Source: Melioribacteraceae bacterium
GTDB lineage: Bacteria > Bacteroidota > Ignavibacteria > Ignavibacteriales > Melioribacteraceae
DNA: 64,000 nt
NCBI GenBank assembly: GCA_030584085.1
Contig: CP129490.1
Span: 589,511-653,510, forward strand
Direction of reading: 5' to 3'
The notes beneath the pieces are model-generated. The model made no database searches and had not been told where the DNA came from. It was given only the letters and a program-made list of their open reading frames with translations. Positions 26,947 to 44,296 of this stretch are shown piece by piece; position 1 is the first letter of the stretch, and every line of letters begins with the position of its first letter. A program made the position numbers and the translations under genes.

Positions 26947-28344
26947 TCACTCAATACTTTTTGTAACCGAAATTCCAAGCTGTTCCATTCTATAACGCAA
27001 TTTTGATCTGGATAATCCAAGCACTTTAGCGGCTTGTACTTGATTTCCTTTAGTTATTTTGAGTGTTTTTAAGATTAGGTCCTTAACAACGTCGTCAATC
27101 TTTATACCTTTTGGGGGGATTTTCAGAATGAAACTATCCGATTGTTTATCTTCTGCCGAATAAATTCCACTCATGAAACTCAAGAAATGAGATTTAATTG
27201 TTTTCTCTTCGTCATCAATCAGAAGAATTGCTCGTTCAATAACATTTCGTAATTCTCTTATGTTTCCTTTCCATGGATAAGATTTCAATCTCTCCATTGC
27301 TTCGGATTCTATATCATTAACTCTCTTTTGAAATTTATTATTGAATTCTGATAAAAACGAATATGACAATGCAGGAATATCTTCAATTCTTTCACGAAGA
27401 GGGGGGATTTCTATTTTTGCCACATTTAATCTGAAATATAAATCCTCTCTAAAATTGCCTGCTCTTATTTCATCTTCAAGATTTTTATTTGTTGCGGCTA
27501 AAACTCTTACATCAACTTCAACTTCTTTTTCACCACCGACTCTAAAGAATTTTCTTTCCTGTAAAACACGCAATAATTTAACCTGAAGATCAAGTGTTAA
27601 TTCACCAATTTCATCCAGCAATATTGTGCCATTGTTTGCAAGTTCAAACTTTCCGAGTTTAGTTTTTTGAGCTGCTCCGGTAAAAGCTCCTTTTTCATGA
27701 CCGAATAATTCACTTTCAGCTAAGTCTTTTGGTATTGTAGCGCAGTTAATTTGAATAAAGTTATTATTTTTTCTTGGACTGTTTTGATGTATAAATTTTG
27801 CAAACACTTCTTTTCCGGTTCCACTTTCTCCTTCAATAAGAATTGTTGTATCCGAACTTTTTGCAAGTTTTTGAGCAGTTTTTACTATTCTTTGAATTTT
27901 GTTACTCTTCCCAAAAAACTCAGGAGAAAGTTCATCTTGCTTCAATAATGTATGTAATGCTTCGACTTCTTGTTTTAGTCTAAGATTTTCAGAAGTCTTC
28001 TTTAAAACATTATTAAGTTGTTCTAGATCAAGTGGTTTTAAAAGAAAGTCGTGTGCCCCAGATTTTATGGCATTTACAGCAATATCAACATCTGCGTAAC
28101 CGGTGATCATAATAACCGGGATTTCGGTATGTTTTGCTTTAATCTCCTTTAAAATTTCTAAACCATTGTGAGTTGTAAGATAAATATCGAGTAAAACTAT
28201 ATCGGGATCAAAACTGCGAATGCTATCAAATACTTCGTCTCCATTGAGGCAAACTTCAACGTTATAGTTTAGCCTTGTTAATGCCTTTTTCAGCGACATA
28301 CATACTAGTTGATCATCATCCACAATTAAAATTTTATTCAACAT
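26947..28344 (-). CDS. Sigma-54-dependent response regulator (NtrC family; FlrC/FleR/FlgR-like by context)
   Basis: 465 aa. REC domain, AAA+ domain (GESGTGKE, ESELFGHEKGAFTGA) and a C-terminal Fis-type HTH (AAKVLGLSRSKLRYRMEQLGI). Confidence 0.9.
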   Translation of the reverse strand: MLNKILIVDDDQLVCMSLKKALTRLNYNVEVCLNGDEVFDSIRSFDPDIVLLDIYLTTHNGLEILKEIKAKHTEIPVIMITGYADVDIAVNAIKSGAHDFLLKPLDLEQLNNVLKKTSENLRLKQEVEALHTLLKQDELSPEFFGKSNKIQRIVKTAQKLAKSSDTTILIEGESGTGKEVFAKFIHQNSPRKNNNFIQINCATIPKDLAESELFGHEKGAFTGAAQKTKLGKFELANNGTILLDEIGELTLDLQVKLLRVLQERKFFRVGGEKEVEVDVRVLAATNKNLEDEIRAGNFREDLYFRLNVAKIEIPPLRERIEDIPALSYSFLSEFNNKFQKRVNDIESEAMERLKSYPWKGNIRELRNVIERAILLIDDEEKTIKSHFLSFMSGIYSAEDKQSDSFILKIPPKGIKIDDVVKDLILKTLKITKGNQVQAAKVLGLSRSKLRYRMEQLGISVTKSIE

Positions 28345-29150: not shown

Positions 29151-29399
29151 TTATCCTTTGAGTTCTTTTAATATTGCTTCAGCAGTTTTTTCTAAAACTT
29201 CTTTTCTGCTATAGAAGTTTTCGCTTAATTTTTGACGAATTTCGTTTAATTTAGCGGTTTGCTCGCTGTTAATTAATTCACGCGCTTCAGGAGAGATATT
29301 GATTGAGTCAACACCTTGACCCTTTTTTTCATCCTTTGCGGGAATGTTTTTCTTCGATGCCGGAAGAATCGGTTGATTATTTACATTGTTAATTTTCAT
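29151..29399 (-). CDS. flgM: Anti-sigma-28 factor FlgM-like protein
   Basis: 82 aa. DSINISPEARELI followed by KLNEIRQKLSENFYSRKEVLEKTAEAILKEL resembles the FlgM C-terminal sigma-28-binding region. Flagellar context. Confidence 0.55.
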   Translation of the reverse strand: MKINNVNNQPILPASKKNIPAKDEKKGQGVDSINISPEARELINSEQTAKLNEIRQKLSENFYSRKEVLEKTAEAILKELKG

Positions 29400-29761
29400 A
29401 ACTCACCTTTAGAATAACTCGCTAATTTTCGCTTATTGCTAATATTTCGCATTTCTATTCTAATATTATCAATTTCTGTGGAATAATTCCTAATCACATT
29501 ATCGTATTCTTTCTTAATAAGTTTAGTGTTTATATCAATTTTTTTTAGAATTTTTTCTGATTCAGCGTCGAGACTTTCTAAATCGATTATTTCACGCAAT
29601 AATCTCGCTTGCGTAAGAGCTGAAAATGCTCCATTATAATTTGTATCAAAATTATCCGGATCAAGAGTTATTAAAAACTGCAGACAGTTATTTATTAGTT
29701 CATCAATCTTATTAAGGATATCAATTACACTATTCATATTAGTAGTTAGATCCTGTACCAA
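29396..29761 (-). CDS. Hypothetical helical protein between fliD and flgM (possible export chaperone)
   Basis: 121 aa. An alternative ATG at 29737 lies 1 nt after the fliD stop. No motif recognised; assignment rests on position only. Confidence 0.4.
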   Translation of the reverse strand: MVQDLTTNMNSVIDILNKIDELINNCLQFLITLDPDNFDTNYNGAFSALTQARLLREIIDLESLDAESEKILKKIDINTKLIKKEYDNVIRNYSTEIDNIRIEMRNISNKRKLASYSKGEL

Positions 29762-31880: not shown

Positions 31881-31914
31881 GAAAAAATAGCCCTTCCGGT
31901 TTCCCGGAAGAGCT
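31881..31914 (-). terminator. Rho-independent terminator after flagellin 1
   Basis: Minus-strand reading is AGCTCTTCCGG-gaaa-CCGGAAGGGCT followed by ATTTTTTC. 11-bp stem with one G-U pair. Confidence 0.8.
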
Positions 31915-31939: not shown

Positions 31940-32773
31940 TTATCCGAATAACTGTAATACTTGTTGTGGTGCAAAGTTCATTTGAGCAACCATAGCTGTA
32001 GCTGCTTGAGCACCAATTGAGTATTTGGTAGCGTTTAATTGTTCGACGGCAACGTCAGCGTCAAACAATCTTGATACAGATGCTTGAGAATTTGTGATAG
32101 CAGATGTTAAGAAGTCATCTTTTGCATCTAGTCTCTGAATAAAGTTACCAACTTTACCAAGTGAAGAACTAATTGTTGCCTCAAATGTATTTAAGTTGGT
32201 TTCTAGAGCAGTAAAATTAGAACGACTAGCAGTTGAAGTTAACAAATCAATTTGAGCTTTCGATGTGTTAAAGTTAGAAGCTATATCATCAGCATAATCA
32301 ACTGATAAAGTTTCGCTGGTTGATGCACCTGTCTGGAACGAGAATCCTGTAGCAGCTGTTGTTCCAAGTAGATTTGTATCATTGAATTTGGTGTTTGTAA
32401 TACCATTTCCAATTTCTTCAGCGATAGCTTTAATATCATTTACTAACGAGCCCAAATCAGCAGCAGCATTACCAGAATCGGCAATTTTGCCTTTGATTTG
32501 TGTGATCATATCACGGATACTAACCAACTGACTTTCGGCAGTTGCAAGCATATCTTTTGCAGATCCAACGTTCTTTTGAGCAGATTGCATAAGAGCAACT
32601 TTTGATTCTAAAGATTTTCCGATACTGAAACCGGAAGTATCATCTGCAACACTGTTTATTCTTTTTTGTGTTGCTAATCTCAACTGAGCTTTTTGAGTTT
32701 GTGAGTTGAGTTTTGCTAGAGCATTATAAGCTTCTAAAGCTCCAATGTTTGATGCGATTCTGAAATTAGACAT
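31940..32773 (-). CDS. Flagellin (paralogue 1)
   Basis: 277 aa. N-terminal RLATQKRINSVADDTSGFSIG. C-terminal DADVAVEQLNATKYSIGAQAATAMVAQMNFAPQQVLQLFG. Confidence 0.92.
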   Translation of the reverse strand: MSNFRIASNIGALEAYNALAKLNSQTQKAQLRLATQKRINSVADDTSGFSIGKSLESKVALMQSAQKNVGSAKDMLATAESQLVSIRDMITQIKGKIADSGNAAADLGSLVNDIKAIAEEIGNGITNTKFNDTNLLGTTAATGFSFQTGASTSETLSVDYADDIASNFNTSKAQIDLLTSTASRSNFTALETNLNTFEATISSSLGKVGNFIQRLDAKDDFLTSAITNSQASVSRLFDADVAVEQLNATKYSIGAQAATAMVAQMNFAPQQVLQLFG

Positions 32774-32882: not shown

Positions 32883-32909
32883 TTATCGCAGAAGTGTGGA
32901 AATAGTTTA
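32883..32909 (-). promoter_or_regulatory. Sigma-28 (FliA)-type promoter for flagellin 1
   Basis: Minus-strand reading is TAAA-N15-tGCGATAA, about 110 nt upstream of the ATG at 32773. Confidence 0.6.
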
Positions 32910-32983: not shown

Positions 32984-33817
32984 TCACCCGAAAAGTTGTA
33001 ATACTTGTTGTGGACTCATATTCAACTGAGCTAACATAGCTGTTGCAGCTTGTGCTCCAATAGAGGCTTTAGTAGCATTAAGTTGTTCAAGTGCAACATC
33101 TGCATCAAACAATCTTGATACAGAAGCTTCAGAGTTTGTAATAGCGGAAGTTAAGAAATCTTCTTTGGCATCCATTCTCTGAATATAATTTCCGATTTTA
33201 CCAAGGGAATCACTTATTGTAGATTCGAATGTATTTAAGTTAGTTTCAAGATTCGTAAAATCTGTACGAGATGAGGAAGAAGTAAGGAGATCAATTTGTG
33301 TTTTTGAAGTGTTAAAGTTAGAAGCTATATCGTCGGCATAGTCGACAGTAAGTGTATCTGAGCTAGAAACACCGGTTTGGAAAGTAAATCCACTTGCAGC
33401 TGTCGTACCAAGCAAAACAGTATCGTTGAATTTAGTGTTTTGAATACCGTTGCCGATTTCTTCGGCTAGCGCTTTTATATCATTTACTAATGAACTTAAG
33501 TCTGCGGCTGCATTACCAGAGTCAGCAATCTTTGCTTTAATTTGTGTTACCATATCACGCATGCTAACCAACTGGCTTTCTGCAGTAGCTAACATATCTT
33601 TTGCAGAACCAACATTTTTTTGAGCCGCATGCATTAATGCTACTTTTGATTCTAATGATTTCCCGATATTAAAACCGGAAGTATCATCTGCAACACTGTT
33701 GATTCTTTTTTGTGTCGCCAATCTTAATTGTGCTTTTTGTGTTTGTGAGTTTAGTTTTGCAAGAGCATTGTATGCTTCCAAAGCTCCAATGTTCGATGCA
33801 ATTTTGAATGTAGACAT
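32984..33817 (-). CDS. Flagellin (paralogue 2)
   Basis: 277 aa, collinear with paralogue 1 and roughly 85 percent identical by eye. Differences are concentrated in the central S/T-rich part. Confidence 0.92.
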   Translation of the reverse strand: MSTFKIASNIGALEAYNALAKLNSQTQKAQLRLATQKRINSVADDTSGFNIGKSLESKVALMHAAQKNVGSAKDMLATAESQLVSMRDMVTQIKAKIADSGNAAADLSSLVNDIKALAEEIGNGIQNTKFNDTVLLGTTAASGFTFQTGVSSSDTLTVDYADDIASNFNTSKTQIDLLTSSSSRTDFTNLETNLNTFESTISDSLGKIGNYIQRMDAKEDFLTSAITNSEASVSRLFDADVALEQLNATKASIGAQAATAMLAQLNMSPQQVLQLFG

Positions 33818-33830
33818 TCTTCCTCCTAAT

Positions 33831-35357
33831 TCAATTGATTTTTTGTAAGTATGAGTTAATTTTTTCTTCGAATTTATTTATGTGGTTCATTACTAATTTA
33901 TTTTTGGTAAATCTATTCTTAGACTGTTCTATTAATTGTTTAAGATCATCGAATTTTTTCATTTCAAGATAAATCGGGATTAAATAGAATACAGGTGTGG
34001 CTTCATCATGATTTTCTTTTAACAACTTTTCAAACACTTCGGCAGCTTCGGGATTTTTGCCTGCTTTACTTAAATCGTATCCTAGTCTATTTTTTACCGA
34101 AACATTATCGATAAATTTTCCGATTAATTTTTGATCAAACTCCAATTTTGTATCAATATGATCATAGTGTTTTGTGAGAGCCAAGTAAAAATCCAGATTG
34201 TTTTCGTTTATAATACCAACCAGTTCGTCTAATTCTTCAGAAGTTAGTTGAGAGTTTGAGGATAATCGTTGAATCAAGCTAGATTCTTTCTGCCATTCAG
34301 AATGATTTTTTCTTTTGGTTTCTTCTAATTTATTAAAGAAGAAATCAATCCCTTCTGTAGCATTTTGATTATATGAAATTGTTAAACCATGATAGATGAT
34401 TTTTACATCGTCCAGAATTACATCCAGTAATCGATTGTTCATGCTATTTATTACAGTGCGATTAAGTTCTAAAGCTTTCTTGCAAAATTCGATTGCCTCA
34501 TTTGGTTTCCCGGCTTTTTCGTAAATTTGAGATGCGGTAAGATTTGCAATCATATTTTCTGAATCAGTTTTTATTGCTTCGTTTATTGAACTAAAAGCAT
34601 TGGAGATATCGTTTGATCGTAAGAAATATTCTGCAATACTGCTTAATGAATAGCCTCTATACTCATTAGTAAGAGAAGAATCATTTATTGCAAGTGTATA
34701 GTATCGATAGGTACTATCAAAATCTTTTAGTATGCTGTAACTATTTGCAATTTGAAAAGCGCAATAACCATTCGGATTGTTTTTATAATCTAAAAGTAAC
34801 AAATCAAGATTACGTTTTGCTTTTTGTTTTAGCCCTTCTCTATCAATATTATAACCGATATGATTAATCAATAATTCCGTGTTTTGAATCTTGCAGCCAT
34901 GCGCAAAGAGCGAATCATCAATTTGTTCATGAGCTTTACCTATAAATTTTATACCACTAAAATTTCTAAACAATCTTGTATAACGTTGAAGTTTGGGTTT
35001 GTTGTGAATCTCGTCAACGTTATAAATTTTACATCTATAGCCGACTTTATCTTTATTTGAAGTAAGCTTTTTCAATATGTGTTTTGAATTTGCATCTAAT
35101 CGTTCGTCTGCGTCAAGATATAACACCCAGTCAGACGTTACTTTTGATAGAGAAAAGTTTCGAGCTTCAGAGAAATCATTACTCCACTTATGATGATAAA
35201 CCGAAGCACCACAGGATTCAGCAATCTTAATGGTATTGTCGTTAGAGCCTGTGTCAACGACTATGATCTCATCAACGACATCTTTTACCGATTGAAGACA
35301 TTCCTCTAGATGCTGTTCTTCGTTTTTTACAATCATGCTAAGTGAAATTGTGGACAC
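33831..35357 (-). CDS. Family-2 glycosyltransferase fused to C-terminal TPR repeats (GmaR/FlmG-like architecture)
   Basis: 508 aa. N-terminal GT2 domain (ISLSMIVKNEEQHLEECLQSV, VVDTGSNDNT, LYLDADE), then TPR-like repeats. The stop is 13 nt from the flagellin 2 ATG. Confidence 0.8.
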   Translation of the reverse strand: MSTISLSMIVKNEEQHLEECLQSVKDVVDEIIVVDTGSNDNTIKIAESCGASVYHHKWSNDFSEARNFSLSKVTSDWVLYLDADERLDANSKHILKKLTSNKDKVGYRCKIYNVDEIHNKPKLQRYTRLFRNFSGIKFIGKAHEQIDDSLFAHGCKIQNTELLINHIGYNIDREGLKQKAKRNLDLLLLDYKNNPNGYCAFQIANSYSILKDFDSTYRYYTLAINDSSLTNEYRGYSLSSIAEYFLRSNDISNAFSSINEAIKTDSENMIANLTASQIYEKAGKPNEAIEFCKKALELNRTVINSMNNRLLDVILDDVKIIYHGLTISYNQNATEGIDFFFNKLEETKRKNHSEWQKESSLIQRLSSNSQLTSEELDELVGIINENNLDFYLALTKHYDHIDTKLEFDQKLIGKFIDNVSVKNRLGYDLSKAGKNPEAAEVFEKLLKENHDEATPVFYLIPIYLEMKKFDDLKQLIEQSKNRFTKNKLVMNHINKFEEKINSYLQKIN

Positions 35358-35358
35358 T

Positions 35359-36243
35359 TTAGCTAACCTTTTTTTCTTCTAATGAATTGTGATTTACTTC
35401 TAATCCCAAAACTCTATTAATTTTTGCTAATCCGTTAAGAGCAAAGTCGTTTCTGGAATCATAAGTTATTGAATACTCGAACATTGTTTTTGATTCTGTG
35501 TCCATACCTTTTAGATAGAATAGTTCACCAAGACCGGCGCAAGCTTGTGATGACCGTGAATCAAGATTTAATGCCTTTTCAAAACATGCTTGAGCTTCGT
35601 CAAATTGCTCTAAAGCTAGGTAGTTAAATCCTTTGAAGTTTTCTAAAGAAGAAATTTTCAAAAGAGTTGAGTTGCTCATTATCCCGGTTGTCAATAGCTC
35701 TTCCGCTTTAACTACTTTATCTAATGAATTTTGATAATCCTTATTTCTGAATAACTTATAAGCATCCGTAACACATTGATTGAATATTGCTGACTCTTCT
35801 TCAGAAATTGAGTCATCAACCAAAGAGTTGTGGTGACTATGTAAACCGAGTGAATTGTTAACTTTTGTTAATCCATTCCTAGCAAATTCGTTGTCTGAAT
35901 TGAGATCTAATGCCCATTCAAACATTATTTTTGCTTCTTCATCTTGGTTTTGTAAGAATAAAACTTCACCAAGACCTGCGCATGCTTGTGAAGAATGAGG
36001 ATTTAATTGTAAACCTCTTTCAAAACATGATTGAGCTGATTTATTATCGCCTGTTCCTAGGCAAATAAATCCACGTAAGTTTTGAACACTTGCTAAGTAT
36101 TCATCGCGTTGATCTTCGTCGATATTCTGAAGTTCATTTTCAAGATCTTCGCTGGAATTATTAAGAACATCTAATGCAGTTTCGAACTCTTTTTTTGCAA
36201 AAAGTTCAAACGCTTGAGTAACGGTGTTTTCTAGTACTTCCAT
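35359..36243 (-). CDS. TPR-repeat protein made of two tandem ~140-aa units
   Basis: 294 aa. Unit 1 ends SQACAGLGEVLFLQNQDEEAKIMFEWALDLNSDNEFARNGLTKVNNSLGLHSHHNSL. Unit 2 ends SQACAGLGELFYLKGMDTESKTMFEYSITYDSRNDFALNGLAKINRVLGLEVNHNSL. Confidence 0.75.
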   Translation of the reverse strand: MEVLENTVTQAFELFAKKEFETALDVLNNSSEDLENELQNIDEDQRDEYLASVQNLRGFICLGTGDNKSAQSCFERGLQLNPHSSQACAGLGEVLFLQNQDEEAKIMFEWALDLNSDNEFARNGLTKVNNSLGLHSHHNSLVDDSISEEESAIFNQCVTDAYKLFRNKDYQNSLDKVVKAEELLTTGIMSNSTLLKISSLENFKGFNYLALEQFDEAQACFEKALNLDSRSSQACAGLGELFYLKGMDTESKTMFEYSITYDSRNDFALNGLAKINRVLGLEVNHNSLEEKKVS

Positions 36244-36284
36244 GTCATTTCTCCTTGTTTGACTAAAGAATTTGAGTTATAAGA

Positions 36285-36300
36285 AACAACAGTTATGCCA
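36285..36300 (-). promoter_or_regulatory. Sigma-54-like promoter candidate for the TPR / GT2-TPR / flagellin 2 unit
   Basis: Minus-strand reading is TGGCATaactgTTGTT, about 40 nt upstream of the ATG at 36243 and downstream of the terminator at 36380-36416. Confidence 0.35.
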
Positions 36301-36379
36301 TATTGCTTTTGAGGAGAAAAGTGAGTTATTTTGGATAAAAATGCGGTTATTACAAGAAAAGACTGGTTAATATTGTGCA

Positions 36380-36416
36380 GATGTAAAATAGTGGTCTATT
36401 GAAAGACCACTATTTT
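36380..36416 (-). terminator. Hairpin terminator after the 1630-aa glycosyltransferase gene
   Basis: ATAGTGGTCT-ttcaat-AGACCACTAT directly after the stop, followed by TTTACAT on the minus strand. Confidence 0.6.
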
Positions 36417-39400
36417 TTAAGGAGTTACATGAGTTTCAATATATTTTAGATTTTCGAGGGCAATTTCATTTTGAGGATCGAGTTCGATTACTCTGCTAAT
36501 AAATCCAAGTGCATCTTCAATTTGATTCTGCATAATTTTTACAACAGCTAAATCATTTAATACCTCGGTAGAAGATGGACTTTGTCTTAGTAATTTATTC
36601 AATATTTCGAGAGCGCCATCCAAATCGGAATTATTAATTAGTTCTTCAGCTTCTTCAAGAGAAGGGAAGGATTCTTCAGATGATAAATCCAAATTATAGT
36701 CTTTAGCATCTAAGCTAAGTTTTTTATTTACGATTGCTAATTTATCCCAGACTTCTTTTCTGTTCTCACCATTTTTTATTGCCCATTCATACATTGTTTT
36801 TGCTTCGTGGAATAATTCAGCTACAAAAAATGTTTCTGCTAAACCTAGGCATGCTCTGCCGGAATTGGGATTTAACTCTAATTCTGTTTGAAAATAATTT
36901 TGAGCTTTTTCCAAACTACCAAGCTGGAGAGCAATATTAGCTGTAAAATTAATCACATCGGTTTTAGAAATATTTTCATAGCCAGTTCGGTCGCTGTTTT
37001 CAAAATTTTTAATTGCTCTTTCAGATTCTGTTAATGCAAGCTCAAAATCATTTTCTTCGGAGTGTAAAAGAGCTCTTGAAAATGCTTCAATAAAGATACT
37101 GTTGTTTATCGGGTAGTGAATGTTTCTGATTCTGAGTTGTTTCCCTTTAAGCCATATTTCGTCAGGATTACCACCCCACTTCTTTGAGAATTTCTCTCGA
37201 TTTATTTCAGATACACTATTTTGTGTAGTCGTACCGTTTTCTTTAAAGGTGATTGAGCCATAGTGATGTATAAAAACATCCTCTGCAATTACTCCCTTAA
37301 ATCCGGCTAACTGTGCACGCAGACAAAAATCATCATCTTCGTAATAGCCTGGAGAAAATCTTTCGTCCAGACCACCTATTTTTTCAATTACTTCTCGTTT
37401 AATTAGAGTAAATAAAAAGGCAATTCGGGGAAATTCATAGAATTTCCCTTTATGTTCCAATCTAGTCTTTTTCGCATAAGCATGCATTTGGTTCAATGTG
37501 CTGTATTTAGCTTTTCGATCCCATTGTGGCCCACTTGCATTATTACTGATGACTCCCACCAGACCATAATCCTTTTTAGATTCAGCAATCTCAACCATTC
37601 TGTCAATACTAGACTTAGTGCAAACTGTATCATTATTTACTAATAATATATACTTTCCTGTTGCTGCTTTGATTCCTTTATTGACTGATTTTGAGAACCC
37701 TGAGTTAATTTCGTTTCTTAGGACTTTTACTGTTTTATTATTTTTAAAAGGTTCGATCATATCTTCTGTAGAGGCATCGTCAACAATTAATATTTCGTAA
37801 TCCATCTCAAGGGTTTTTTCAAGACTTGTTATAGCTTCTATAACGTATTTAAGTTTATTATAAGTTGGGATGATTATGGAGATCAAATCTTTAGCATTTA
37901 TTTTATTGGATATATCAGATGAGGATAATACATTTTTGATATTCTCCTCAGATAATTCCTTCGGTGTACCGGTTTCATTTAACAGTTTTTCGACTACTTG
38001 TTTCTTGAATGTTAAATTGGTAATTGATTCGAATACGTTTACAAGAGTTTTTAATGTGTTTCTTTCATTAAATTCATAAGATGTTTTAATTCCCTCAATT
38101 ACCGGAGAAGTATATGAATCGGTATTTTGCATAATCACAATTATTCTTTTACCAAGCGAATCAACATCTCCAAAATCTACCAAAAAAGAATTCTTCCCAT
38201 CTACGCAAAAACTTTCGGCACCCATATTACGAGTTGTTATTACAGGGGTTCCGCAAGCCATCGCTTCTAAAATTGGCAGTGAAAAACCTTCGTAAACCGA
38301 ACTACAGACAACTAGACTACTTTTTTGTAAAACAGTTGCAACTTCTGCTGAAGTTAATTCTGTAAGTATTTCGATTTTTATTCCTGTTTCCTGTTCAAGA
38401 TTGTTCTCAAGTGATACTTTATTCTGGGGATTAAAACCCATAACTATAGTTAATTTCAAATCCTCAATTTTATAATTCGATTTTTGAATTGCTTTAATAG
38501 TACTCACCAGGAAAGATAATCCTTTTAGAAAATGGAAGGGATTGCCAATAAAAGCTATGGATTTTTCTCTTGATGTTAAAGATCGCGAAGGTTTAAAAAT
38601 ATTGTGATCAATTCCATTCGGTATATAATAACTATCTTTATTAAACTTTTCTTTGAATAGATCGACCAAGTGTTTTGAGATAACTATACTGCCTATCGGC
38701 AGACGATGCATTTCATTCAATAAATATTTATCTGTACGAATATCATCATAGTTTCTTCCGTAATGATAACCCTCGAACCCTTGACAAAACAAATATATAC
38801 GTGATGGATGGATTCTTTGGACTATTTCAGGAATTTCAAAAATACTGAACACAATTATCTGATCGAATTTTTTATCATATAATTCTTCAAAACTCTGTAT
38901 TTGTGTGAAATTGATTTTATAATCAATCCACCGCGGCTGCGGTTCAAAAGAATATACTGTTACATCTACACCTAATTTCATCAACCAGTTGATATGTTGA
39001 AAAACCACTTTAGCCCCACCAGTAATTATGTGTGCATCTTTTATAAAGTAAGCAAGTCTCGATTTTGTTATAGGATTAAGATTATGTTTTAATACTTGAT
39101 TCTTAGTTTTAAGTAACGATGTGAAATATGGTGTGAATAACTCTTCACTGAATAGTGAAATATTTTTACATTTATGACAAATAAAAATCGAGCTACTAGG
39201 CTGTTCTTTTATTTCATGTATAGCAATAAAATTTGATTCACTATCACATCGATTACACTTAATTATAAGCCGATGTTCAACGTTATTAATATTAACAGTT
39301 CCGCGACCTATTGTCCATGAAAGAATGGATTTCAATGAAAGTTGTGGCAATAGTTCTTTATTATTAGACTGTTGATTAGTATAAAGTCTAGTCAGAACAC

Positions 39401-41309
39401 CATTGTAAATTTCGGATGCTAAATTAGCAGTTTCTTGGAATGGGAATTTATCTAAACTCATTTGAATAAATTTAGTGGAATTGTGAAAATCATTTAATCT
39501 AAACATTCTCAATGCAACTCTTTGATATACAATGGCTTTTGCTTTATTTGAATCAACAATATCCCAATCGAGATCAGGACTCAATTCTCGTAGAGAATAT
39601 TGTTCAAGCATATTTTGAACAACCCTGGATTCAAAGTCAGTATTAATTTCAACTGTTCCGGATGACATATTGTTATCGTGCCAACGCCATTTATATACAA
39701 AATCATTAAGATGTACAAAGCTAACTTTTAATGCAGCTCTGCTCCACCATTCATAATCATGAGCGCGTGTAAACTCTTTATTATACTTCCCAATTTTATC
39801 ATAGCATGATTTGCGAATTATTGATCCGCCATCCGGTATTGGATTGTATTTTATGAGCATTCCCAGAAGTTCAGAGTTTTTTCCAGACCAATCTTGAAAT
39901 ATCTCATTTTTAATTGGATTCAATTTTGCATCAGTAACAATTAAATTCCCATATATTACATCAATGTCAGATTGGTTTCTTAAAATACTTGCATATTTAT
40001 TCAAAGTATTTGGCATCAATAAATCATCAGATCCGAGCCATAGAATAAATTCGCCCTTTGCTTCGGAAATTGCTCTATTGCGGGTATCCGATGCACCTGT
40101 ATGATCTTTACGAATGTACTGTATTTTATCGTTGTTAATTAGATTAATTAAATCACCAGTTTCATCTGTTGAACCATCATCAACAACTACAATTTCATAA
40201 TTATCATATTCTTGACTAAGAACACTATTAATAGCCTCTTCAATAAAATGTCTCCTGTTATATGTTGGGATACAAATTGAAATCATTGGATTCATAGATG
40301 AGCAGTCCTTCATATTACTTGAATAGCCTTTTATCGCAAAATGCATTTTTTCGATTGATTTAGCCGTAAAAAAAGTATAATCTTTATTCTTGTAAACTTG
40401 CTTGATGGAATTCTCCATATGCCATGGTTCATAAAAAGCATTTACTTGAATACCATATAATTTCCCAAATTCTAAATAATCAACATACCTTCCATCTCTC
40501 ATCAGAATCCAAAGATCTTTTTTGCAGAGTGCCGGTAAATATAAATTACCTCCTTGAGGCCCTATAACAAATTCCGAATCATTATATAATGACAATTGGA
40601 ATCGATTTCTTTCTTCAGGCTCTAAACCTTTATAATAATTATTTAGGCTTATAATCTGATCATCTCTTTCCCCGATTTGATTAAAATCATATTGGAAATA
40701 TTGATCACTTGATGTTTTTTCAATATAGTGGTTATAGACAACCATATATCCCATTTCATTGAGAGTTTTTGCCATACTTTTAAATTCTTGGGGATCGAAA
40801 TAATTTAAGGGTGCCTTGTATGTATTATACCATTGTCTGAAATATTTATTATTTACAACAACGAATGGCTTCTTTAATTTAAAGTCATAATTGAATTTTA
40901 CATCTGTATAATCTGGAACAGCATAGTTTTCAGTACTAATTATAGTATGAATGTCTTTGTTTGTCCATTCAATATCTTCAACAACTATCTGTTTCTTGTT
41001 TACTAAGTCAGGTCCGGGGTAAACTAAAAGTCGATCGGGATATAATTTTTGTAGTTCTCCATATTTTTTCTGATCGCCCCACATGTCTCCAATGAATTCC
41101 GGGCCAACTTCGATGTGATTATCTGAAAAGTAATAAAAAACTTTAGAACCTCTTCTGCTTATAGTATTGAATCGAATCCCAAGTGTATCCTTTAAATATA
41201 GGAGGTATGGGATCCACGAAATCATTTCATATCCAAATTCACCGGTGAAACAAAAGATACTGTTCGATGCTTCAGTTTTACTTAATACTATTCTTTCGTT
41301 TGTTTTCAT
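36417..41309 (-). CDS. Giant multidomain glycosyltransferase: unassigned N-domain, GT2, zinc-ribbon-like segment, GT4 (GT-B), GT2, TPR
   Basis: 1630 aa. First GT2 domain: ISICIPTYNRRHFIEEAINSVLSQEYDNYEIVVVDDGSTDETGD. CxxC..CxxC segment: CNRCDSESNF...CHKCKN. GT4 domain: GGAKVVFQHINWL...EGFSLPILEAMACGTPVITT. Second GT2 domain: ISIIIPTYNKLKYVIEAI...ILIVDDASTED...LLVNNDT. C-terminal TPR with the same GLAE..MYEWAI module as the neighbouring TPR protein. Confidence 0.8.
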   Translation of the reverse strand: MKTNERIVLSKTEASNSIFCFTGEFGYEMISWIPYLLYLKDTLGIRFNTISRRGSKVFYYFSDNHIEVGPEFIGDMWGDQKKYGELQKLYPDRLLVYPGPDLVNKKQIVVEDIEWTNKDIHTIISTENYAVPDYTDVKFNYDFKLKKPFVVVNNKYFRQWYNTYKAPLNYFDPQEFKSMAKTLNEMGYMVVYNHYIEKTSSDQYFQYDFNQIGERDDQIISLNNYYKGLEPEERNRFQLSLYNDSEFVIGPQGGNLYLPALCKKDLWILMRDGRYVDYLEFGKLYGIQVNAFYEPWHMENSIKQVYKNKDYTFFTAKSIEKMHFAIKGYSSNMKDCSSMNPMISICIPTYNRRHFIEEAINSVLSQEYDNYEIVVVDDGSTDETGDLINLINNDKIQYIRKDHTGASDTRNRAISEAKGEFILWLGSDDLLMPNTLNKYASILRNQSDIDVIYGNLIVTDAKLNPIKNEIFQDWSGKNSELLGMLIKYNPIPDGGSIIRKSCYDKIGKYNKEFTRAHDYEWWSRAALKVSFVHLNDFVYKWRWHDNNMSSGTVEINTDFESRVVQNMLEQYSLRELSPDLDWDIVDSNKAKAIVYQRVALRMFRLNDFHNSTKFIQMSLDKFPFQETANLASEIYNGVLTRLYTNQQSNNKELLPQLSLKSILSWTIGRGTVNINNVEHRLIIKCNRCDSESNFIAIHEIKEQPSSSIFICHKCKNISLFSEELFTPYFTSLLKTKNQVLKHNLNPITKSRLAYFIKDAHIITGGAKVVFQHINWLMKLGVDVTVYSFEPQPRWIDYKINFTQIQSFEELYDKKFDQIIVFSIFEIPEIVQRIHPSRIYLFCQGFEGYHYGRNYDDIRTDKYLLNEMHRLPIGSIVISKHLVDLFKEKFNKDSYYIPNGIDHNIFKPSRSLTSREKSIAFIGNPFHFLKGLSFLVSTIKAIQKSNYKIEDLKLTIVMGFNPQNKVSLENNLEQETGIKIEILTELTSAEVATVLQKSSLVVCSSVYEGFSLPILEAMACGTPVITTRNMGAESFCVDGKNSFLVDFGDVDSLGKRIIVIMQNTDSYTSPVIEGIKTSYEFNERNTLKTLVNVFESITNLTFKKQVVEKLLNETGTPKELSEENIKNVLSSSDISNKINAKDLISIIIPTYNKLKYVIEAITSLEKTLEMDYEILIVDDASTEDMIEPFKNNKTVKVLRNEINSGFSKSVNKGIKAATGKYILLVNNDTVCTKSSIDRMVEIAESKKDYGLVGVISNNASGPQWDRKAKYSTLNQMHAYAKKTRLEHKGKFYEFPRIAFLFTLIKREVIEKIGGLDERFSPGYYEDDDFCLRAQLAGFKGVIAEDVFIHHYGSITFKENGTTTQNSVSEINREKFSKKWGGNPDEIWLKGKQLRIRNIHYPINNSIFIEAFSRALLHSEENDFELALTESERAIKNFENSDRTGYENISKTDVINFTANIALQLGSLEKAQNYFQTELELNPNSGRACLGLAETFFVAELFHEAKTMYEWAIKNGENRKEVWDKLAIVNKKLSLDAKDYNLDLSSEESFPSLEEAEELINNSDLDGALEILNKLLRQSPSSTEVLNDLAVVKIMQNQIEDALGFISRVIELDPQNEIALENLKYIETHVTP

Positions 41310-42388
41310 AATTTGTCATCTTCAATTTGTCTAAAAATTTTAAAGGCTTCTGAAATAGCTATGTCCATATCATAGTATTTATATTTCCCCAATCTGCCGC
41401 AAAAAATTATATTATTATCAGTATTTTCTTTTTCATACTTCTTATAAATCTCTTGATCAATGTAGCTAGGGAAGGGATATTCATTTTCCCAAGAGGAACT
41501 TGGGTTCTGTGGAATTTCATATGTTATTAAGGTGCCCGAAATCTTTTCTCTAAAGTTTTGAGGCAGCATATATTTCCATTCTAATATTCTTACATATTCA
41601 TATTCCTCTCCCGGATAATTAACCTGTTCACAATTTTGAAATGAATCAAATTCGGAGAAGTATTTATCTATTCTTTTTTGGGTTCTATATCTCAGTTTAC
41701 CAAATTTGCTATTATAATATTCATCTATAGAACCTGTATAAATGAGCTTAGAATACTGAAATTGGTCCCTATTTTTTAAAAAATCACAATTTAGAATAAC
41801 GGGAATTCCTTCTAACATCTTACTTATTAATGCAGTAAAACCGTTAACTGGTAATCCTTGATATTTATGATCCATTAGTCTTATGTCATTATTTATTCTT
41901 ATATCAAATCTTTTTGCTAAATCCTTTGATAATTGCTTCGGATCAACAGCCCATTGCTTTTTCGTATATCCCTTAACAAATTTTTCATAAATCAAGCTTG
42001 GCATCATTTTAAGAGAAGCTTCTTCAAAATTAGTAGCTTCCCCATCAAAACTATAGACGAACTTGTCGTCAACAATTCTTTTAAAATCTTGTTCATGTAA
42101 AGGCCAGTTAAATAATTGGGAATTAGAAAAAGTCTTTAATTTTGCTTCAAATTTGTAAAACTCAGAAAACCTATTCACAAACTTCCATACTTTCTCAGAA
42201 TTTGTCCTAAAATAGTGTGGGCCATATTTATTCAGTCTTATACCACTCTTGTGGTAATAATCGTAGATGTTTCCAGCGATGTGATCTCGGCGTTCAAGTA
42301 CAATAACTTTTTTGCCGATATCAGTTAAACTTCGTGCTAGAACACTTCCAGTCAATCCAGACCCAATTATTAAGTATTCTGTTTTCAT
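41306..42388 (-). CDS. glf: UDP-galactopyranose mutase
   Basis: Likely start is ATG 42388 (MKTEYLIIGSGLTGSVLARSL, FAD dinucleotide fold). The track ORF begins at an upstream TTG. GPHYFRTNSEKVWKFV and the C-terminal IIFCGRLGKYKYYDMDIAI are UGM-like. Overlaps the giant GT gene by 4 nt. Confidence 0.8.
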   Translation of the reverse strand: MKTEYLIIGSGLTGSVLARSLTDIGKKVIVLERRDHIAGNIYDYYHKSGIRLNKYGPHYFRTNSEKVWKFVNRFSEFYKFEAKLKTFSNSQLFNWPLHEQDFKRIVDDKFVYSFDGEATNFEEASLKMMPSLIYEKFVKGYTKKQWAVDPKQLSKDLAKRFDIRINNDIRLMDHKYQGLPVNGFTALISKMLEGIPVILNCDFLKNRDQFQYSKLIYTGSIDEYYNSKFGKLRYRTQKRIDKYFSEFDSFQNCEQVNYPGEEYEYVRILEWKYMLPQNFREKISGTLITYEIPQNPSSSWENEYPFPSYIDQEIYKKYEKENTDNNIIFCGRLGKYKYYDMDIAISEAFKIFRQIEDDKL

Positions 42389-42511
42389 AAATTTTCTTTT
42401 TTGTTTGCAAAACAATTTTTATTCCAGAGAATAACATTAATTATAGCTTCAAAACACTAAGTATTCTTGGAACTTTTCATCGGGATTAGCCCTTTGGCCA
42501 ATATTAACCAC

Positions 42512-44296
42512 TTACATCTGCAGTAATTGTTCCAGCGGTTGGTGGAGGGTTGTTCGTTCTTCGCGGAATTTTTCTTCTAATAATTTTCGTTCTTCAAGCT
42601 TGTTGTTCTTGTAGGTTTCAATTTCTTCGTTTAATCTTATCTTGGATTTCTCGTATTTCTCTTCGTGATGTTTTTTCTTTTGTTCGTGTTTTGAGCGAAT
42701 AGCGTTTTTACCTTGTTCTTTCTCGGTGTTTAAATTGCTTATTCTTTGTACCAAATTATTTTTTGCTGAATAGCGCTGATGTAAAGTGCTAAGCAGCATG
42801 AATATTGAGATGAAAATGCCGATTATGAAACTAATCGTTCCCCATTTTAATCCGCCCATAATTACTATTGAAATTACGCTTCCAATATTTGCGATGTCGG
42901 CGACATAGCTATTTGAATATTCTGCAAATCCACCGGATAGCAACACAAACAAGGAAAACAATCCATTGTAAAGCATGGAATTTTTGATTGAAGAAAATGA
43001 TGAATTGTTTGAATCATTATCAAAACGTGAAAGTAGGTCTTCAAAATATTTTAATTCATGATTAATTTTATTTTCGTATTCGGTCAATACTTTCTGAAAC
43101 TTTGCATCTTCTTTCTGAATTATATCTCTATTGTTTTCTTCTAGTGTTCTTAATAAATCTCGGTTGGTATTAATTTTCTCGTCATATCGCACCAATAAGT
43201 CATTGATCATTTTTTCAAATTTTTGATCGATATTGCTTGAGATTTCATTAAGGATGGAACGGCACTTATTATTAAGAAAATCCAGACTTGTGGTAAAGTA
43301 AAAACTTTTTGAGTTTCCGTATTTAGCAATTATAAATTCTATAAATGATATTTTGCTTTTAATTTCATCACTCTTGTACTCCGAGAACATCTCTTGCGAA
43401 AGACCTTTCATTGCAGCATTTATCTTTGCAATTAATTCGGATTTTTTCTGAACAATTAGATTTAGTGTTGTGATTTTTTCGGTAAGCAACGGTCCTTCAT
43501 TGAGCAAGAAGAATTTTTGTAGAAATGAATTCCGAATAAGCATTTCGAAGAACTTAAGATTATTGTTTTCAACCGCGTAGGAAATTCTGCTTAAGTCATA
43601 TTCAACTAATTTATCGACTAGTATTTCCGCTTGTTCAAACTGCTCGGTTTTCAACATTATTACTGATTTATAAAATGCCGCATTCGGTGAAAATCCACCG
43701 GAAGTTTCGATTTCATTGATAGCATATAACGCTGTTTCAATTTCTTCTATATCTATATAATACAAGCTTTTTATGAGATTCATCATCAGTTTAAGATGAA
43801 CGTCATTTTCAGTCGCTTCCATTGCAGTAAGGTATTCTAATTTTCGGTCGATTAAAGAAAAATCTTTAATGAGATTTTTATCACGTATAATGAATGAACT
43901 TAATAGCAGTTCATCATAAAAAGGCAGATTGTTCGCTTTACTTAATTTAAAGATTGTGTGTAAGTTTGATTCTTTCTCCAAAGTCGATTTTGTAAAAAAC
44001 CACTTCAATAACGAATCTCTTACTGTATCTTTTGATAAGATTCCATTTGTTTTTTTTGTGAGAGCAAATTTGTAGTAATCAAGCAAATAGAGAGTAATAT
44101 TCTCTTTTGAAAGAAAATTTTCGGAAATGTTTTCAGGTAAGTTTAGACTAAAAAATTTGTGAAATTTCTGTGATTCTTTTAACGGATCGAATTCTTCCTT
44201 GTCATCAAAAAAGAAAAATTCTTTTCCAAGTCTGCTAAACTTTCGTCTATCTTCTAGTTGTATGTCATCTAAAGTTAGAATCATTTGAATCTTCAC
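42512..44296 (-). CDS. Hypothetical 594-aa membrane-anchored coiled-coil protein
   Basis: Long helical N-terminal region, coiled-coil middle, 2-3 TM helices at about aa 440-510 (LFSLFVLLSGGF, VISIVIMGG, ISFIIGIFISIFMLL) and a K/E-rich C-terminal coiled coil. No family recognised. Confidence 0.6.
   Translation of the reverse strand: MKIQMILTLDDIQLEDRRKFSRLGKEFFFFDDKEEFDPLKESQKFHKFFSLNLPENISENFLSKENITLYLLDYYKFALTKKTNGILSKDTVRDSLLKWFFTKSTLEKESNLHTIFKLSKANNLPFYDELLLSSFIIRDKNLIKDFSLIDRKLEYLTAMEATENDVHLKLMMNLIKSLYYIDIEEIETALYAINEIETSGGFSPNAAFYKSVIMLKTEQFEQAEILVDKLVEYDLSRISYAVENNNLKFFEMLIRNSFLQKFFLLNEGPLLTEKITTLNLIVQKKSELIAKINAAMKGLSQEMFSEYKSDEIKSKISFIEFIIAKYGNSKSFYFTTSLDFLNNKCRSILNEISSNIDQKFEKMINDLLVRYDEKINTNRDLLRTLEENNRDIIQKEDAKFQKVLTEYENKINHELKYFEDLLSRFDNDSNNSSFSSIKNSMLYNGLFSLFVLLSGGFAEYSNSYVADIANIGSVISIVIMGGLKWGTISFIIGIFISIFMLLSTLHQRYSAKNNLVQRISNLNTEKEQGKNAIRSKHEQKKKHHEEKYEKSKIRLNEEIETYKNNKLEERKLLEEKFREERTTLHQPLEQLLQM

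Follow-up and report, generated by a model that had tools for sequence, protein, structure and literature searches.

A glycosyltransferase island inside a flagellar cluster

The window analyzed here, a stretch of 64 kb, comes from an uncultured Melioribacteraceae bacterium. A flagellar and chemotaxis cluster of about 44 kb encloses an island of four genes, in the order glf, a giant ORF of 1630 aa, a duplicated TPR protein and a GT2-TPR protein, located directly 5' of the genes for two flagellins of 277 aa. All of them are on the minus strand, and within the flagellar regulon the glycosyltransferase (GT) and sugar-nucleotide genes form one continuous row with the flagellin genes. The initial annotation had counted five genes upstream of the flagellins. 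Their strand and positions hold, including the 4-nt overlap of glf and the 13-nt gap before flagellin, but the five are actually four genes and a hairpin.

Flagellin 1 (32984..33817, minus strand; Pfam Flagellin_N and Flagellin_C) has an AGGAGG ribosome-binding site and starts 13 nt past the stop of the GT2-TPR gene; the gap is also of 13-15 nt in two of the related loci described below (L002 and L008). Flagellin 2 (31940..32773, minus strand) is 87% identical to flagellin 1 (240/277) and is followed by a terminator-like hairpin (31889-31914). Both had been described as carrying an S/T-rich central segment, and the composition bears this out. Serine plus threonine amount to 33-37% at residues 151-210 (37% in flagellin 1) versus 10-23% in the other 30-residue blocks, and the central enrichment is kept in 13 orthologous flagellins.

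The upstream border of the island is a 594-aa protein of no known family (42512..44296, minus strand), coiled-coil-rich, with two predicted membrane segments at about 465-507 (hydrophobic windows) and no Pfam or NCBIfam match. Homologues of it (23-27% identity, E 4e-24 to 5e-41) sit at the same border in L003, L005, L006, L007 and L034. In L059 there is a 614-aa ORF without Pfam match at this border. A sigma-54 activator gene is found at 26947-28344, and an 82-aa ORF near the island is weakly FlgM-like. None of the ORFs of 150 aa or more in the 64-kb window is a gene of the pse/leg/neu/maf type, in agreement with the previously claimed lack of nonulosonic acid genes, and Pfam searches of ORFs of this size detected no phosphoglycosyltransferase, Wzx flippase, Wzy polymerase, ABC exporter or chain-length regulator. 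The four island proteins show no membrane or hydrophobic segments and are all predicted to be soluble.

Just 3' of the giant ORF stop, what had been called a terminator is a terminator-like 13-bp hairpin (approximately 36387-36414, minus strand; dG -17.5 kcal/mol, z -8.4). A generic terminator scan missed it because its T-run is short, and L002, L008 and L009 likewise have a hairpin or a canonical terminator at this point. A sigma-54-like -24/-12 element, TGGCAT-N5-TTGT (36286..36300, minus strand), precedes the TPR gene by about 55 nt. It is the single match in the window, yet 28 of 100 shuffles gave at least one match. We have accepted it because L002, L008 and L009 carry the version TGGCATA-N4-GTTGAT at the corresponding place, and not because of the rarity of the match. 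The TPR, GT2-TPR and flagellin 1 genes are probably co-transcribed from this sigma-54-type promoter. Flagellin 2 is preceded by a sigma-28-like promoter, TAAA-N16-GCGATAA (32883..32909, minus strand; a single match in the window), and three related TAAA-N-CCGATAA sites are present in the flagellar cluster versus 0.5 expected.

The proteins of the island

The glf gene (41306..42388, minus strand) codes for 360 aa from an ATG, and its last 4 nt (41306-41309) are shared with the giant ORF. The longest ORF, 41306-42415, would begin at a TTG, and the ATG at 42388 agrees with the end coordinate given before. Its product, with an FAD-binding N-terminus, matches Pfam GLF (2.1e-51) and NAD_binding_8 (5.7e-16), aligns full-length with the E. 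coli UDP-galactopyranose mutase (UGM) 1i8t (E 1e-63, residues 4-350) and keeps the UGM motifs KGYTxKQW, YR(S/T) and GRLxxYxYYDM. The homology argues for the UGM assignment made from the start, and interconversion of UDP-galactopyranose and UDP-galactofuranose (UDP-Galf) is predicted. The protein is divergent, and its score against NCBIfam TIGR00031 (250.8 bits) falls under the equivalog cut-off of 303.75, so the sugar could be another furanose or another UDP-sugar.

The GT2-TPR protein (508 aa; 33831..35357, minus strand) is of the GmaR/SunS type by phmmer, AF2, Foldseek and Pfam. Among solved proteins it is nearest in sequence to GmaR of Listeria monocytogenes, which is both a flagellin O-GlcNAc transferase and the MogR anti-repressor: searching the PDB with phmmer gave the GmaR GT domain 22ao (E 1.6e-30, residues 4-195) and SunS (5.7e-23). 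The likeness to GmaR pointed out initially is therefore a sequence homology of the GT domain. In the AF2 model (pLDDT 93) everything from residue 173 on is helical, and this C-terminal part is predicted to pack against the GT domain as a TPR or helical-repeat domain; Pfam TPR_1/TPR_2 match at 274-300. Among more than 1500 homologues, the best 120 are orthologues of about 500 aa. In 26 orthologues (35-80% identity) the motifs for nucleotide-sugar and metal binding, D35-T-G-S-x-D40 and D82-A-D84-E85, do not vary, and they align with the same motifs in GmaR. This protein is likely the initiating flagellin O-glycosyltransferase, transfer to Ser/Thr being suggested by the conserved adjacency of its gene to flagellin genes.

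Between the hairpin and the GT2-TPR gene lies the gene for the 294-aa TPR protein (35359..36243, minus strand; Pfam TPR families), which consists of two copies of a unit of about 145 aa. The halves are 39% identical (E 8e-36), as expected for the duplicated protein first described. Orthologues with 2-5 copies of the unit, free or fused, occur in L002, L005-L009, L012, L034, L035 and L059.

The giant ORF (36417-41309, minus strand) contains five modules and a zinc-ribbon-like segment. The fusion is real, since an independent assembly encodes a protein identical at 1629/1630 residues. Module 1 (residues 1-338; 40296..41309, minus strand) is treated below. Module 2 (residues ~341-640; 39390..40289, minus strand) is a GT2 of GT-A fold with a helical extension, with Pfam Glycos_transf_2 at 344-469, the motifs DDGSTD and SDD, and K4CP as best solved match (6.6e-21). 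It is followed by the CxxC..CxxC zinc-ribbon-like segment (39150..39272, minus strand), whose four cysteines C685, C688, C711 and C714 are all kept in three orthologues (L001, L003, L004). Module 3 (residues ~760-1100; 38010..39032, minus strand) is a GT4 of GT-B fold (Pfam Glycos_transf_1, 3.3e-23, and Glyco_trans_1_4) with the EX7E motif EGFSLPILE, 47-65% identical to the same three orthologues from flagellin loci. Module 4 (residues ~1140-1392; 37134..37892, minus strand) is a second GT2 of the Glyco_tranf_2_3 type with the motif YEDDDF (Pfam 3.9e-31). Conservation within the family is highest here, with 48-66% identity to the L001-L007 orthologues and 46% to the last module of the non-flagellar giant of L046. 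Module 5 (residues ~1395-1630; 36417..37127, minus strand; Pfam TPR_19 and others) has one ~145-aa TPR unit and then a shorter TPR tail. Against the two halves of the 294-aa protein this unit shows 38% identity (E 1e-14) and 33% identity (E 2e-11). Pfam places GT2 at 344-~550, GT4 at ~764-1067, the second GT2 at 1143-1369 and TPR at 1456-1617, and together with the conserved cysteines this matches the series of modules initially read in the ORF.

The N-terminal module of the giant enzyme

Pfam gave no match to residues 1-340, not even at E<=10. Five members of the family gave none below E 0.01 (the nearest was GT61, E 0.013, in one homologue), and no NCBIfam match covers residues 1-330. The AF2 model (pLDDT 87.5, pTM 0.86) retrieved TibC, TagF, WaaC and GT9 enzymes by Foldseek at probability 1.00, with TM-scores of only 0.3-0.5. 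Both methods predict a GT-B fold, with two alpha/beta domains of Rossmann type and a cleft, which had been offered before as a possibility for these residues. The family has 554 representatives, and one giant virus shows a structural match (TM 0.63, 19% identity).

The gene neighborhoods link this domain to mutases. In 5/9 independent contexts a GLF or GT75/RGP mutase gene is found near the module 1 homologue: GLF overlaps or abuts the N-domain gene in Phycisphaerae, L060 and L077, lies 1.3 kb away in a Wzx/Wzy cluster in L058, and in L051 and L052 the neighbor is a GT75/RGP mutase. GT75 enzymes make NDP-furanoses (PMC9937993). There is no mutase within 7-10 kb in 4/9 contexts, and N-domain relatives occur also in clusters of Wzx/Wzy and LPS type. 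Module 1 is thus a candidate for a family of furanosyl (Galf) transferases undescribed in Pfam and NCBIfam, its NDP-furanose donor being proposed from gene neighborhood only. Known galactofuranosyltransferases belong to GT2 (GlfT1/2, PamC), GT111/DUF4422 (WbbM-N, PamA), GT31 (GfsA) and LPG1 (PMC12269835). They share with module 1 an adjoining UGM gene and the presumed UDP-Galf donor (PMC12269835), but module 1, with its predicted GT-B fold, matches none of those families, nor Pfam, and it differs also in standing beside GT75 mutases and in the giant-virus match. What is new here is that the unassigned N-terminal 338 aa appear as a mutase-linked GT-B fold without a Pfam family.

Conservation of the locus

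We compared the eleven loci with the closest homologues of residues ~338-1628 (L001-L004, L006, L008, L009, L012, L034, L035 and L059), all of Ignavibacteriota and with giant multi-GT ORFs of 1000-3071 aa, among which L009 and L012 end before a flagellin gene could appear. The order giant GT - (TPR) - GT2-TPR - flagellin - FliS - FliD is found in nine of them, with GT2-TPR orthologues 32-56% identical and flagellins 47-80% identical. In 8/9 loci flagellin follows the GT2-TPR gene at once or after at most ~460 nt; the exception is L006, with two ORFs between them. Among cultured relatives, Melioribacter roseus and Stygiobacter electus share the core of the island. Outside the phylum, a Thermodesulfovibrionales (Nitrospirota) MAG has a 2787-aa GT/methyltransferase/TPR giant beside FlaF-FlbT-flagellin. 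The neighborhood survey suggested at the outset therefore returned conserved linkage to flagellin, in nine Ignavibacteriota loci and one of Nitrospirota, and the homologues of the flagellin-locus core do not sit consistently in EPS or LPS loci. As for the suggestion that one mega-enzyme largely assembles the flagellin glycan, the linkage stands, but the constant and probably flagellin-directed part is the 508-aa GT2-TPR protein, and the giant is the variable and probably elongating one. Among flagellin-linked relatives glf is present only in L006.

Modules 1 and 2 form a recurrent didomain cassette, found in the same order in L054, L055, L057 and L060-L063; the 3009-aa P0031 is collinear with residues 1-635 at 47%. 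The cassette giant of L062 lies between PEPCK and a Mur ligase, not adjoining flagellin genes, those of L061 and L063 adjoin ClpXP and lack a flagellin gene in the 8 kb upstream of them, the side that was covered, and the giants of L046 and L057 neighbor other polysaccharide genes. One of the cassette loci elsewhere has glf, and one other locus was excluded. Since the cassette and the special TPR unit occur in giants elsewhere, these modules are not specific to flagellin, and the role of TPR modules as a flagellin dock stays an analogy. The giant enzyme looks like an evolutionary chimera of a Zn-ribbon-GT4-GT2-TPR core, seemingly specific to the flagellin locus in this phylum, to which glf and the new domain-GT2 cassette appear to have been added at the 5' end. 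This would explain the differing island content of related species.

Comparison with known glycosylation systems

TPR-bearing GTs are established or accepted flagellin glycosyltransferases, as the first reading had stated (PMC7591256, PMC13317340), and enzymes of the GmaR and SunS/ThuS types glycosylate polypeptides directly, in the case of GmaR in the cytoplasm (PMC9638930). GmaR shares with the GT2-TPR protein the order N-terminal GT-A (GT2) then TPR, homologous GT domains with common DTGSxD, DADE and HEQ motifs, and, as proposed here, a short flagellin of ~280 aa as substrate. The island protein differs in being 129 residues shorter (508 aa against 637 aa) and in having no detectable linker or anti-repressor domain: at E<=0.001 the only GmaR chain that matched it was the 204-residue GT domain, and its C-terminal 310 residues have no detectable similarity to any other GmaR chain. 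It belongs also to a different phylum, and its partners here (UGM, a free TPR protein and the multi-GT giant) imply an oligosaccharide and not the single GlcNAc of GmaR. The best structural match is SunS/ThuS (7msp, 7msk; Foldseek E 1e-16, TM 0.69), which likewise combine GT-A with a helical repeat recognizing polypeptide, and the best NCBIfam match is TIGR04195 (2.5e-25; 89 bits against a cut-off of 350). These enzymes are shorter (~420 aa), are found in bacteriocin clusters and modify Cys of ribosomal peptides (glycocins). In Caulobacter FlmG/Maf the TPR part also binds flagellin and the GT part transfers sugar in the cytoplasm (PMC7591256; bioRxiv 10.1101/2023.12.03.569772), but the domain order and GT folds are unlike those found here and the sugars are nonulosonic acids (pseudaminic/legionaminic), for which this window has no pse/leg/maf genes.

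In the available text of two surveys, glf is already reported in predicted flagellin glycosylation islands (PMC5109656, PMC4875605). Geobacillus types III/IV and Enterobacteriaceae type 39 have it among GT genes beside flagellin, and a Galf-containing flagellin glycan is, as here, a prediction. According to the same text those islands are sets of separate genes, and text searches of it found no mention of multi-GT fusions of 1600-3000 aa or of the N-domain family. Several GT modules fused in one soluble polypeptide are known from Klebsiella WbbM, the chondroitin synthase K4CP and capsule polymerases. Those enzymes polymerize on acceptors that are either free or bound to lipid, and their genes come with exporters. 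The giant described here differs, with four (up to ~7 in relatives) different modules plus TPR units, beside flagellin and without exporters.

A proposed multi-sugar glycan on the filament and its alternatives

Our analysis indicates that the filament is most likely decorated with a chain of several sugars, mainly by the 1630-residue fused enzyme. This reading, already put forward in the initial annotation, is supported on all the points that can be checked computationally, and the function itself is what we infer from them. The GT2-TPR protein would bind unfolded or FliS-bound flagellin before export and place the first sugar on Ser/Thr of the S/T-rich center. The 1630-aa enzyme would then extend it with its four catalytic modules, the new GT-B, the GT2, the GT4 and the second GT2. 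Glf, translationally coupled to the giant ORF, would turn UDP-galactopyranose into UDP-Galf, and the N-terminal GT-B module would be the transferase using the furanose donor. The ~145-aa TPR units, one in the giant C-terminus and two in the 294-aa protein, may keep the enzymes bound to the substrate or to one another. We regard it as fairly probable that the island is in this way a system of cytoplasmic flagellin O-glycosylation, with the giant extending the chain and glf plus module 1 giving a furanose.

Another situation would be that the GT2-TPR protein alone acts on flagellin, adding a single sugar like GmaR, with the giant and Glf as mere neighbors that, for instance, glycosylate some other protein, secreted or at the surface, or make a polysaccharide independent of lipid. 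The hairpin does stand between the giant ORF and the unit TPR - GT2-TPR - flagellin, away from flagellin there are giants that have the GT2b module, the TPR-unit motif and the N-domain-GT2 cassette in common with this one, and N-domain relatives belong to clusters of Wzx/Wzy and LPS type. We consider it unlikely, because a giant multi-GT ORF is found directly upstream of GT2-TPR in 9/9 complete Ignavibacteriota loci despite complete turnover of modules, the pairing reappears in the Nitrospirota MAG, the free TPR protein, itself apparently co-transcribed with flagellin, has a homologue of its units in the giant, and no export or carrier machinery is nearby among the ORFs of at least 150 aa. The same lack of machinery bears on the idea that the whole island makes an envelope polysaccharide (EPS, LPS or capsule) and adjoins flagellin by coincidence. 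Public annotations do read "glycosyltransferase involved in cell wall biosynthesis", and the best NCBIfam matches of the GT modules, all partial and far under the cut-offs, are to enzymes for EPS, teichuronic acid and colanic acid. Against this, the 64 kb lack a phosphoglycosyltransferase, Wzx, Wzy, ABC transporter and chain-length regulator (ORFs of at least 150 aa), the island proteins are predicted to be soluble, the flagellin synteny is conserved and the homology of GT2-TPR is to the GmaR/SunS type; we find this explanation quite improbable. Least probable of all appears a role in regulation first, with glycosylation as secondary. GmaR is bifunctional (PMC9638930), chaperone or regulator roles are common for TPR proteins, and the weakly FlgM-like ORF and the sigma-54 activator are nearby, but the C-terminal 310 residues of GT2-TPR do not resemble other GmaR chains detectably and the catalytic motifs are invariant across the 26 orthologues at 35-80% identity. 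Regulation alone would hardly explain four more catalytic GT modules and a sugar-nucleotide mutase.

Organization of the predicted glycosylation island

We have analyzed the minus-strand flagellar and chemotaxis supercluster found at positions 1 to ~44,300 of the window, which codes for FlhB, FliR, FliP, FliM, FliL, FlgE, FlgD, FliK, FliI, FliG, FliF, FliD and FliS together with CheB, CheA, CheR and a sigma-54 activator with its kinase. The predicted glycosylation island sits at its upstream end. In transcription order, this end starts with a gene for a 594-aa protein without a Pfam or NCBIfam family (42512-44296), followed by glf, coding for a UDP-galactopyranose mutase (UGM or GLF; 41306-42388, from the ATG), a 1630-aa ORF (36417-41309), a stable hairpin, a 294-aa TPR protein (35359-36243), a 508-aa GT2-TPR protein (33831-35357), flagellin 1 (32984-33817) and flagellin 2 (31940-32773), all of them on the minus strand. 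ORF and Pfam checks agreed with the coordinates and module list of the initial annotation. The five genes that it counted upstream of the flagellins are actually four genes and the hairpin.

The giant fusion is not an assembly artefact, since a second sequence record encodes a protein identical to it at 1629 of 1630 residues. The window has a low GC content (about 0.31-0.40), and the island (0.319) differs little from the somewhat higher value of the flagellar cluster (0.338), which gives no clear indication of a recent transfer. A search for phase-variable homopolymer tracts in the island found none.

A GmaR-type transferase next to the flagellins

Searches with the 508-aa GT2-TPR protein gave more than 1500 homologues, and the best 120 are all of about 500 aa. 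The few of these 120 with a named source carry the label Ignavibacteriota or 'Bacteroidota', and the only annotation throughout is 'glycosyltransferase'. Among solved proteins, the top match of the GT domain of the 508-aa protein was the corresponding domain of Listeria GmaR (E 1.6e-30), with SunS next. GmaR puts O-GlcNAc on flagellin and has the GT domain before the TPR (PMC9638930), an order common to both proteins, whereas the anti-repressor part of GmaR was undetectable in the 508-aa protein. The best matches of its AlphaFold model (pLDDT 93) were SunS and ThuS (E 1e-16, TM 0.69), enzymes that glycosylate peptides directly. The motifs DTGSxD and DADE are invariant in the orthologues. Homology and position thus suggest that this is a flagellin-directed, probably initiating transferase. 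As for the proposed acceptors, the flagellins are short (277 aa) and, in the segment flanked by the conserved helical regions of both termini, their S+T content reaches 33-37%, an enrichment kept in 13 orthologues that bears out the S/T-rich centre described before.

Conservation of the linkage and nature of the pathway

Homologue-bearing loci of other genomes are given here as L numbers. In a scan with one genome per species, the closest relatives came only from Ignavibacteriota, and we searched all the window genes against their loci. A recurring order of giant multi-GT ORF(s), (TPR protein), GT2-TPR, flagellin(s), FliS, FliD and (kinase, sigma-54 activator) was present in L001, L002, L003, L004, L006, L008, L034, L035 and L059, while the sequences of L009 and L012 stop short of the flagellin position. 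Identities to the window proteins were 32-56% for the GT2-TPR orthologues and 47-80% for the flagellins, and the linkage is thus conserved over considerable divergence. The module content of the giant ORFs (1000-3071 aa in the relatives) is not conserved; they carry differing sets of up to five GT2, GT4, Fringe-like, GT9, methyltransferases and TPR units. The flagellin-locus giants of L006 (6905-16120) and L008 (4211-12733) reach 3071 and 2840 aa. Their modules, among them a Fringe-like and a GT9 domain and as many as three methyltransferase domains, suggest that the glycans of the phylum are methylated and vary greatly.

Giant GT-TPR enzymes beside flagellins are not confined to Ignavibacteriota, since in a Thermodesulfovibrionales MAG (L056, 206-10230) a 2787-aa GT4/GT2/methyltransferase/TPR protein abuts FlaF-FlbT-flagellin-MotAB. 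The alphaproteobacterial matches (Ferrovibrio, Elioraea and others; L010-L045) were set aside as uninformative, their similarity being restricted to the second GT2 module; a tblastn search of these loci with the window flagellins was negative over 10 kb.

Searches of the window ORFs of at least 150 aa found no nonulosonic-acid genes, as had been noted from the sequence, and no phosphoglycosyltransferase, flippase, polymerase or ABC exporter in the window. None of the four island proteins has hydrophobic segments. The missing carrier and export genes and the predicted solubility of the island proteins fit a cytoplasmic protein glycosylation rather than a lipid-carrier pathway. In principle, the giant enzyme may act on a different acceptor. 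Its N-terminal cassette (the N-terminal module and the first GT2), its type of second GT2 and the motif of its TPR unit also occur in giant enzymes elsewhere, clearly without flagellin linkage in L062, and other giants with these features adjoin ClpXP or polysaccharide genes; therefore the TPR units cannot be called flagellin-specific. The proposal of the initial annotation that the locus glycosylates flagellin is supported by the linkage, the GmaR-type homology and the absence of carrier-pathway genes. We thus assign the locus to a known kind of system, the flagellin glycosylation islands that have a GmaR-type enzyme. The presence of glf in such predicted islands has already been reported (PMC5109656, PMC4875605). 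Its distinguishing traits are the apparently chimeric giant multi-transferase and, embedded in it, the candidate new furanosyltransferase family. A literature search found no publication on a Melioribacter flagellin glycosyltransferase.

The giant enzyme as an apparent chimera

Besides its TPR end, the giant enzyme comprises four catalytic modules. Its Zn-ribbon-like CxxC..CxxC segment, GT4, second GT2 and TPR unit share 42-66% identity with the flagellin-locus enzymes of L001, L003 and L004, whereas identity to these enzymes drops to only ~25% in the first GT2 and residues 1-338 (the N-terminal module, or N-domain) have no counterpart there. On the other hand, residues 1-635 are collinear, with 47% identity, with the start of P0031, a homologous protein of 3009 aa, and the N-domain followed by the same GT2 recurs, fused or as neighbouring genes, in L054, L055, L057 and L060-L063. 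Given these contrasting patterns of similarity, the 1630-aa protein looks like a chimera of a locus-specific core and an imported N-terminal cassette. The C-terminal TPR unit of ~145 aa has homology with each half of the 294-aa protein, and two to five copies of it, free or fused, are found in the relatives.

Two giant ORFs headed by the N-domain and GT2 appeared isolated: the one in L062 (7920-15860, 2646 aa) between PEPCK/Mur ligase housekeeping genes, and the one in L061 (7995-16984, at least 2996 aa, as the locus ends inside the ORF) among ClpP, ClpX and a T9SS plug protein.

A candidate family of furanosyltransferases

The N-domain matched no Pfam or NCBIfam family, and Pfam searches with five members at E<=10 gave noise and one weak GT61 match. 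The family is small: a profile search over 1.84 billion cluster representatives recovered 554 members, 53 of them matching strongly over the full length. The majority stand alone as proteins of 310-385 aa and bear the label 'hypothetical', and the family occurs in Ignavibacteriota, Phycisphaerae and other bacteria. The suggestion that this region may be GT-B-like agrees with its AlphaFold model, which has a predicted GT-B fold (pLDDT 87.5). The nearest solved structures, at modest TM-scores, were TibC (a GT9-type protein heptosyltransferase), TagF, WaaC and UDP-GlcNAc 2-epimerases. The closest match in a viral structure library, the giant-virus (Terrestrivirus) protein A0A3G4ZQV3, was much closer (TM 0.63).

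The neighbours of the N-domain were informative about its possible role. In the window its ORF overlaps by 4 nt with glf, the score of which is below the NCBI equivalog threshold, and in L060 a glf 61% identical to that of the window overlaps an N-domain-GT2 fusion. A GLF gene precedes the N-domain gene in the Phycisphaerae loci L048/L049, L050, L053, L066 and L077, the called genes overlapping in L048-L050 and L053, and in L058 GLF is found 1.3 kb from the N-domain, in a Wzx/Wzy cluster. In L051 the N-domain gene is followed by an overlapping gene of the other mutase type, GT75/RGP, and L052 has a GT75/RGP gene and a UGM-like flavoprotein, which was counted as a mutase, both within 5 kb. A flavoprotein of ~450 aa in L055 was not counted, since only the FAD motif aligns with UGM. 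Altogether, a pyranose-furanose mutase lies beside the N-domain in five of the nine independent contexts; those without one are L046/L064, L057, L054 and L055, plus L061-L063 among the fused forms.

GT75 enzymes are FAD-independent NDP-pyranose mutases (PMC9937993), so that two unrelated types of furanose-donor mutase, the FAD-dependent UGM and the Mn-dependent GT75/RGP, each recur beside the N-domain. Because both families keep company with it, the simplest reading of the gene neighbourhood is that the N-domain is a furanosyltransferase. PMC12269835 names known Galf-transferases from GT2 and GT111, and N-domain furanosyltransferases would therefore be a new family, in the sense of being set apart from these and from the Pfam/NCBIfam models. 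Our tentative proposal, to which we give slightly less than an even chance, is that residues 1-338 represent a new GT-B family using NDP-furanose donors (Galf, possibly Araf or related) that here would add Galf to the filament within a protein-bound 'assembly-line' giant glycosyltransferase.

The N-domain and GT75/RGP gene pair of L051 (8001-9904) is on a viral-looking contig, where numerous small ORFs overlap; T5orf172/MUG113 and Methyltransf_24 genes are among them. Three Phycisphaerae contigs (L048 7781-13509, L050 7648-13358 and L053 184-6011) share a four-gene arrangement of a B12-binding protein, GLF, the N-domain protein and a convergent 726-831-aa protein with a weak Glyco_trans_1_2 match, a candidate compact Galf-glycan module outside the flagellar context.

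Flagellin glycosylation is known mainly from pathogens, with nonulosonic acids transferred via Maf/FlmG or a single GlcNAc via GmaR. This locus and its relatives in an environmental phylum suggest a different design, in which a conserved GmaR-like initiator is paired with a highly variable giant fusion in which four to about seven catalytic modules are combined with repeated TPR units and, in some cases, methyltransferases. Shuffling of these modules would diversify the filament surface. The GT-B family found with both known types of furanose-forming mutase is a candidate for a missing enzyme class, that of GT-B furanosyltransferases. To our knowledge galactofuranose is absent from mammals, which makes Galf-handling enzymes interesting both as drug targets and for glyco-engineering. 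Among the relatives, Melioribacter roseus and Stygiobacter electus are in culture, and the glycan prediction is thus open to direct checking.

Transcription signals and other genes of the locus

All the transcription signals described here are predictions. The hairpin after the giant ORF (-17.5 kcal/mol, z -8.4) has positional counterparts in L002, L008 and L009; it was not listed by a generic terminator scan, and its assignment is based on its folding and conservation. A motif, TGGCATA-N4-GTTG(A/T)T, is kept some 55 nt ahead of the TPR gene in the window (36286-36300, minus strand), L002 (~2551-2567), L008 (~12900-12916) and L009 (~724-740). It resembles a sigma-54 -24/-12 element, an assignment that is tentative because the -12 is TTGA/TTGT and not TTGC; a strict sigma-54 pattern search gave no match in the relatives. 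Flagellin 2 has a sigma-28-like TAAA-N16-GCGATAA, and a search of 300 nt gave no sigma-28-type promoter ahead of flagellin 1, which starts 13 nt after the GT2-TPR stop with an AGGAGG site. Judging from these features, the GT2-TPR enzyme and its proposed substrate flagellin 1 are likely co-transcribed.

Much of the 594-aa protein is coiled-coil-like in sequence, and two hydrophobic segments are found near residues 465-507. Homologues of it (23-27% identity, E 4e-24 to 5e-41) form the upstream border of the island in L003, L005, L006, L007 and L034, and L059 has a 614-aa ORF without Pfam match that corresponds to it in position. Downstream of fliD there are two minus-strand ORFs of 82 aa (29151-29399), with a weak FlgM-like match (E 0.0075), and 121 aa (29396-29761), with a counterpart in L002 (43% identity). 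Their products may be an anti-sigma factor and a chaperone. In position and approximate size, two ORFs of L059 (111 and 81 aa) correspond to them. Finally, in the FliK-like hook-length control protein (10082-12664, minus strand, 860 aa) the Flg_hook match is confined to the last ~80 residues.
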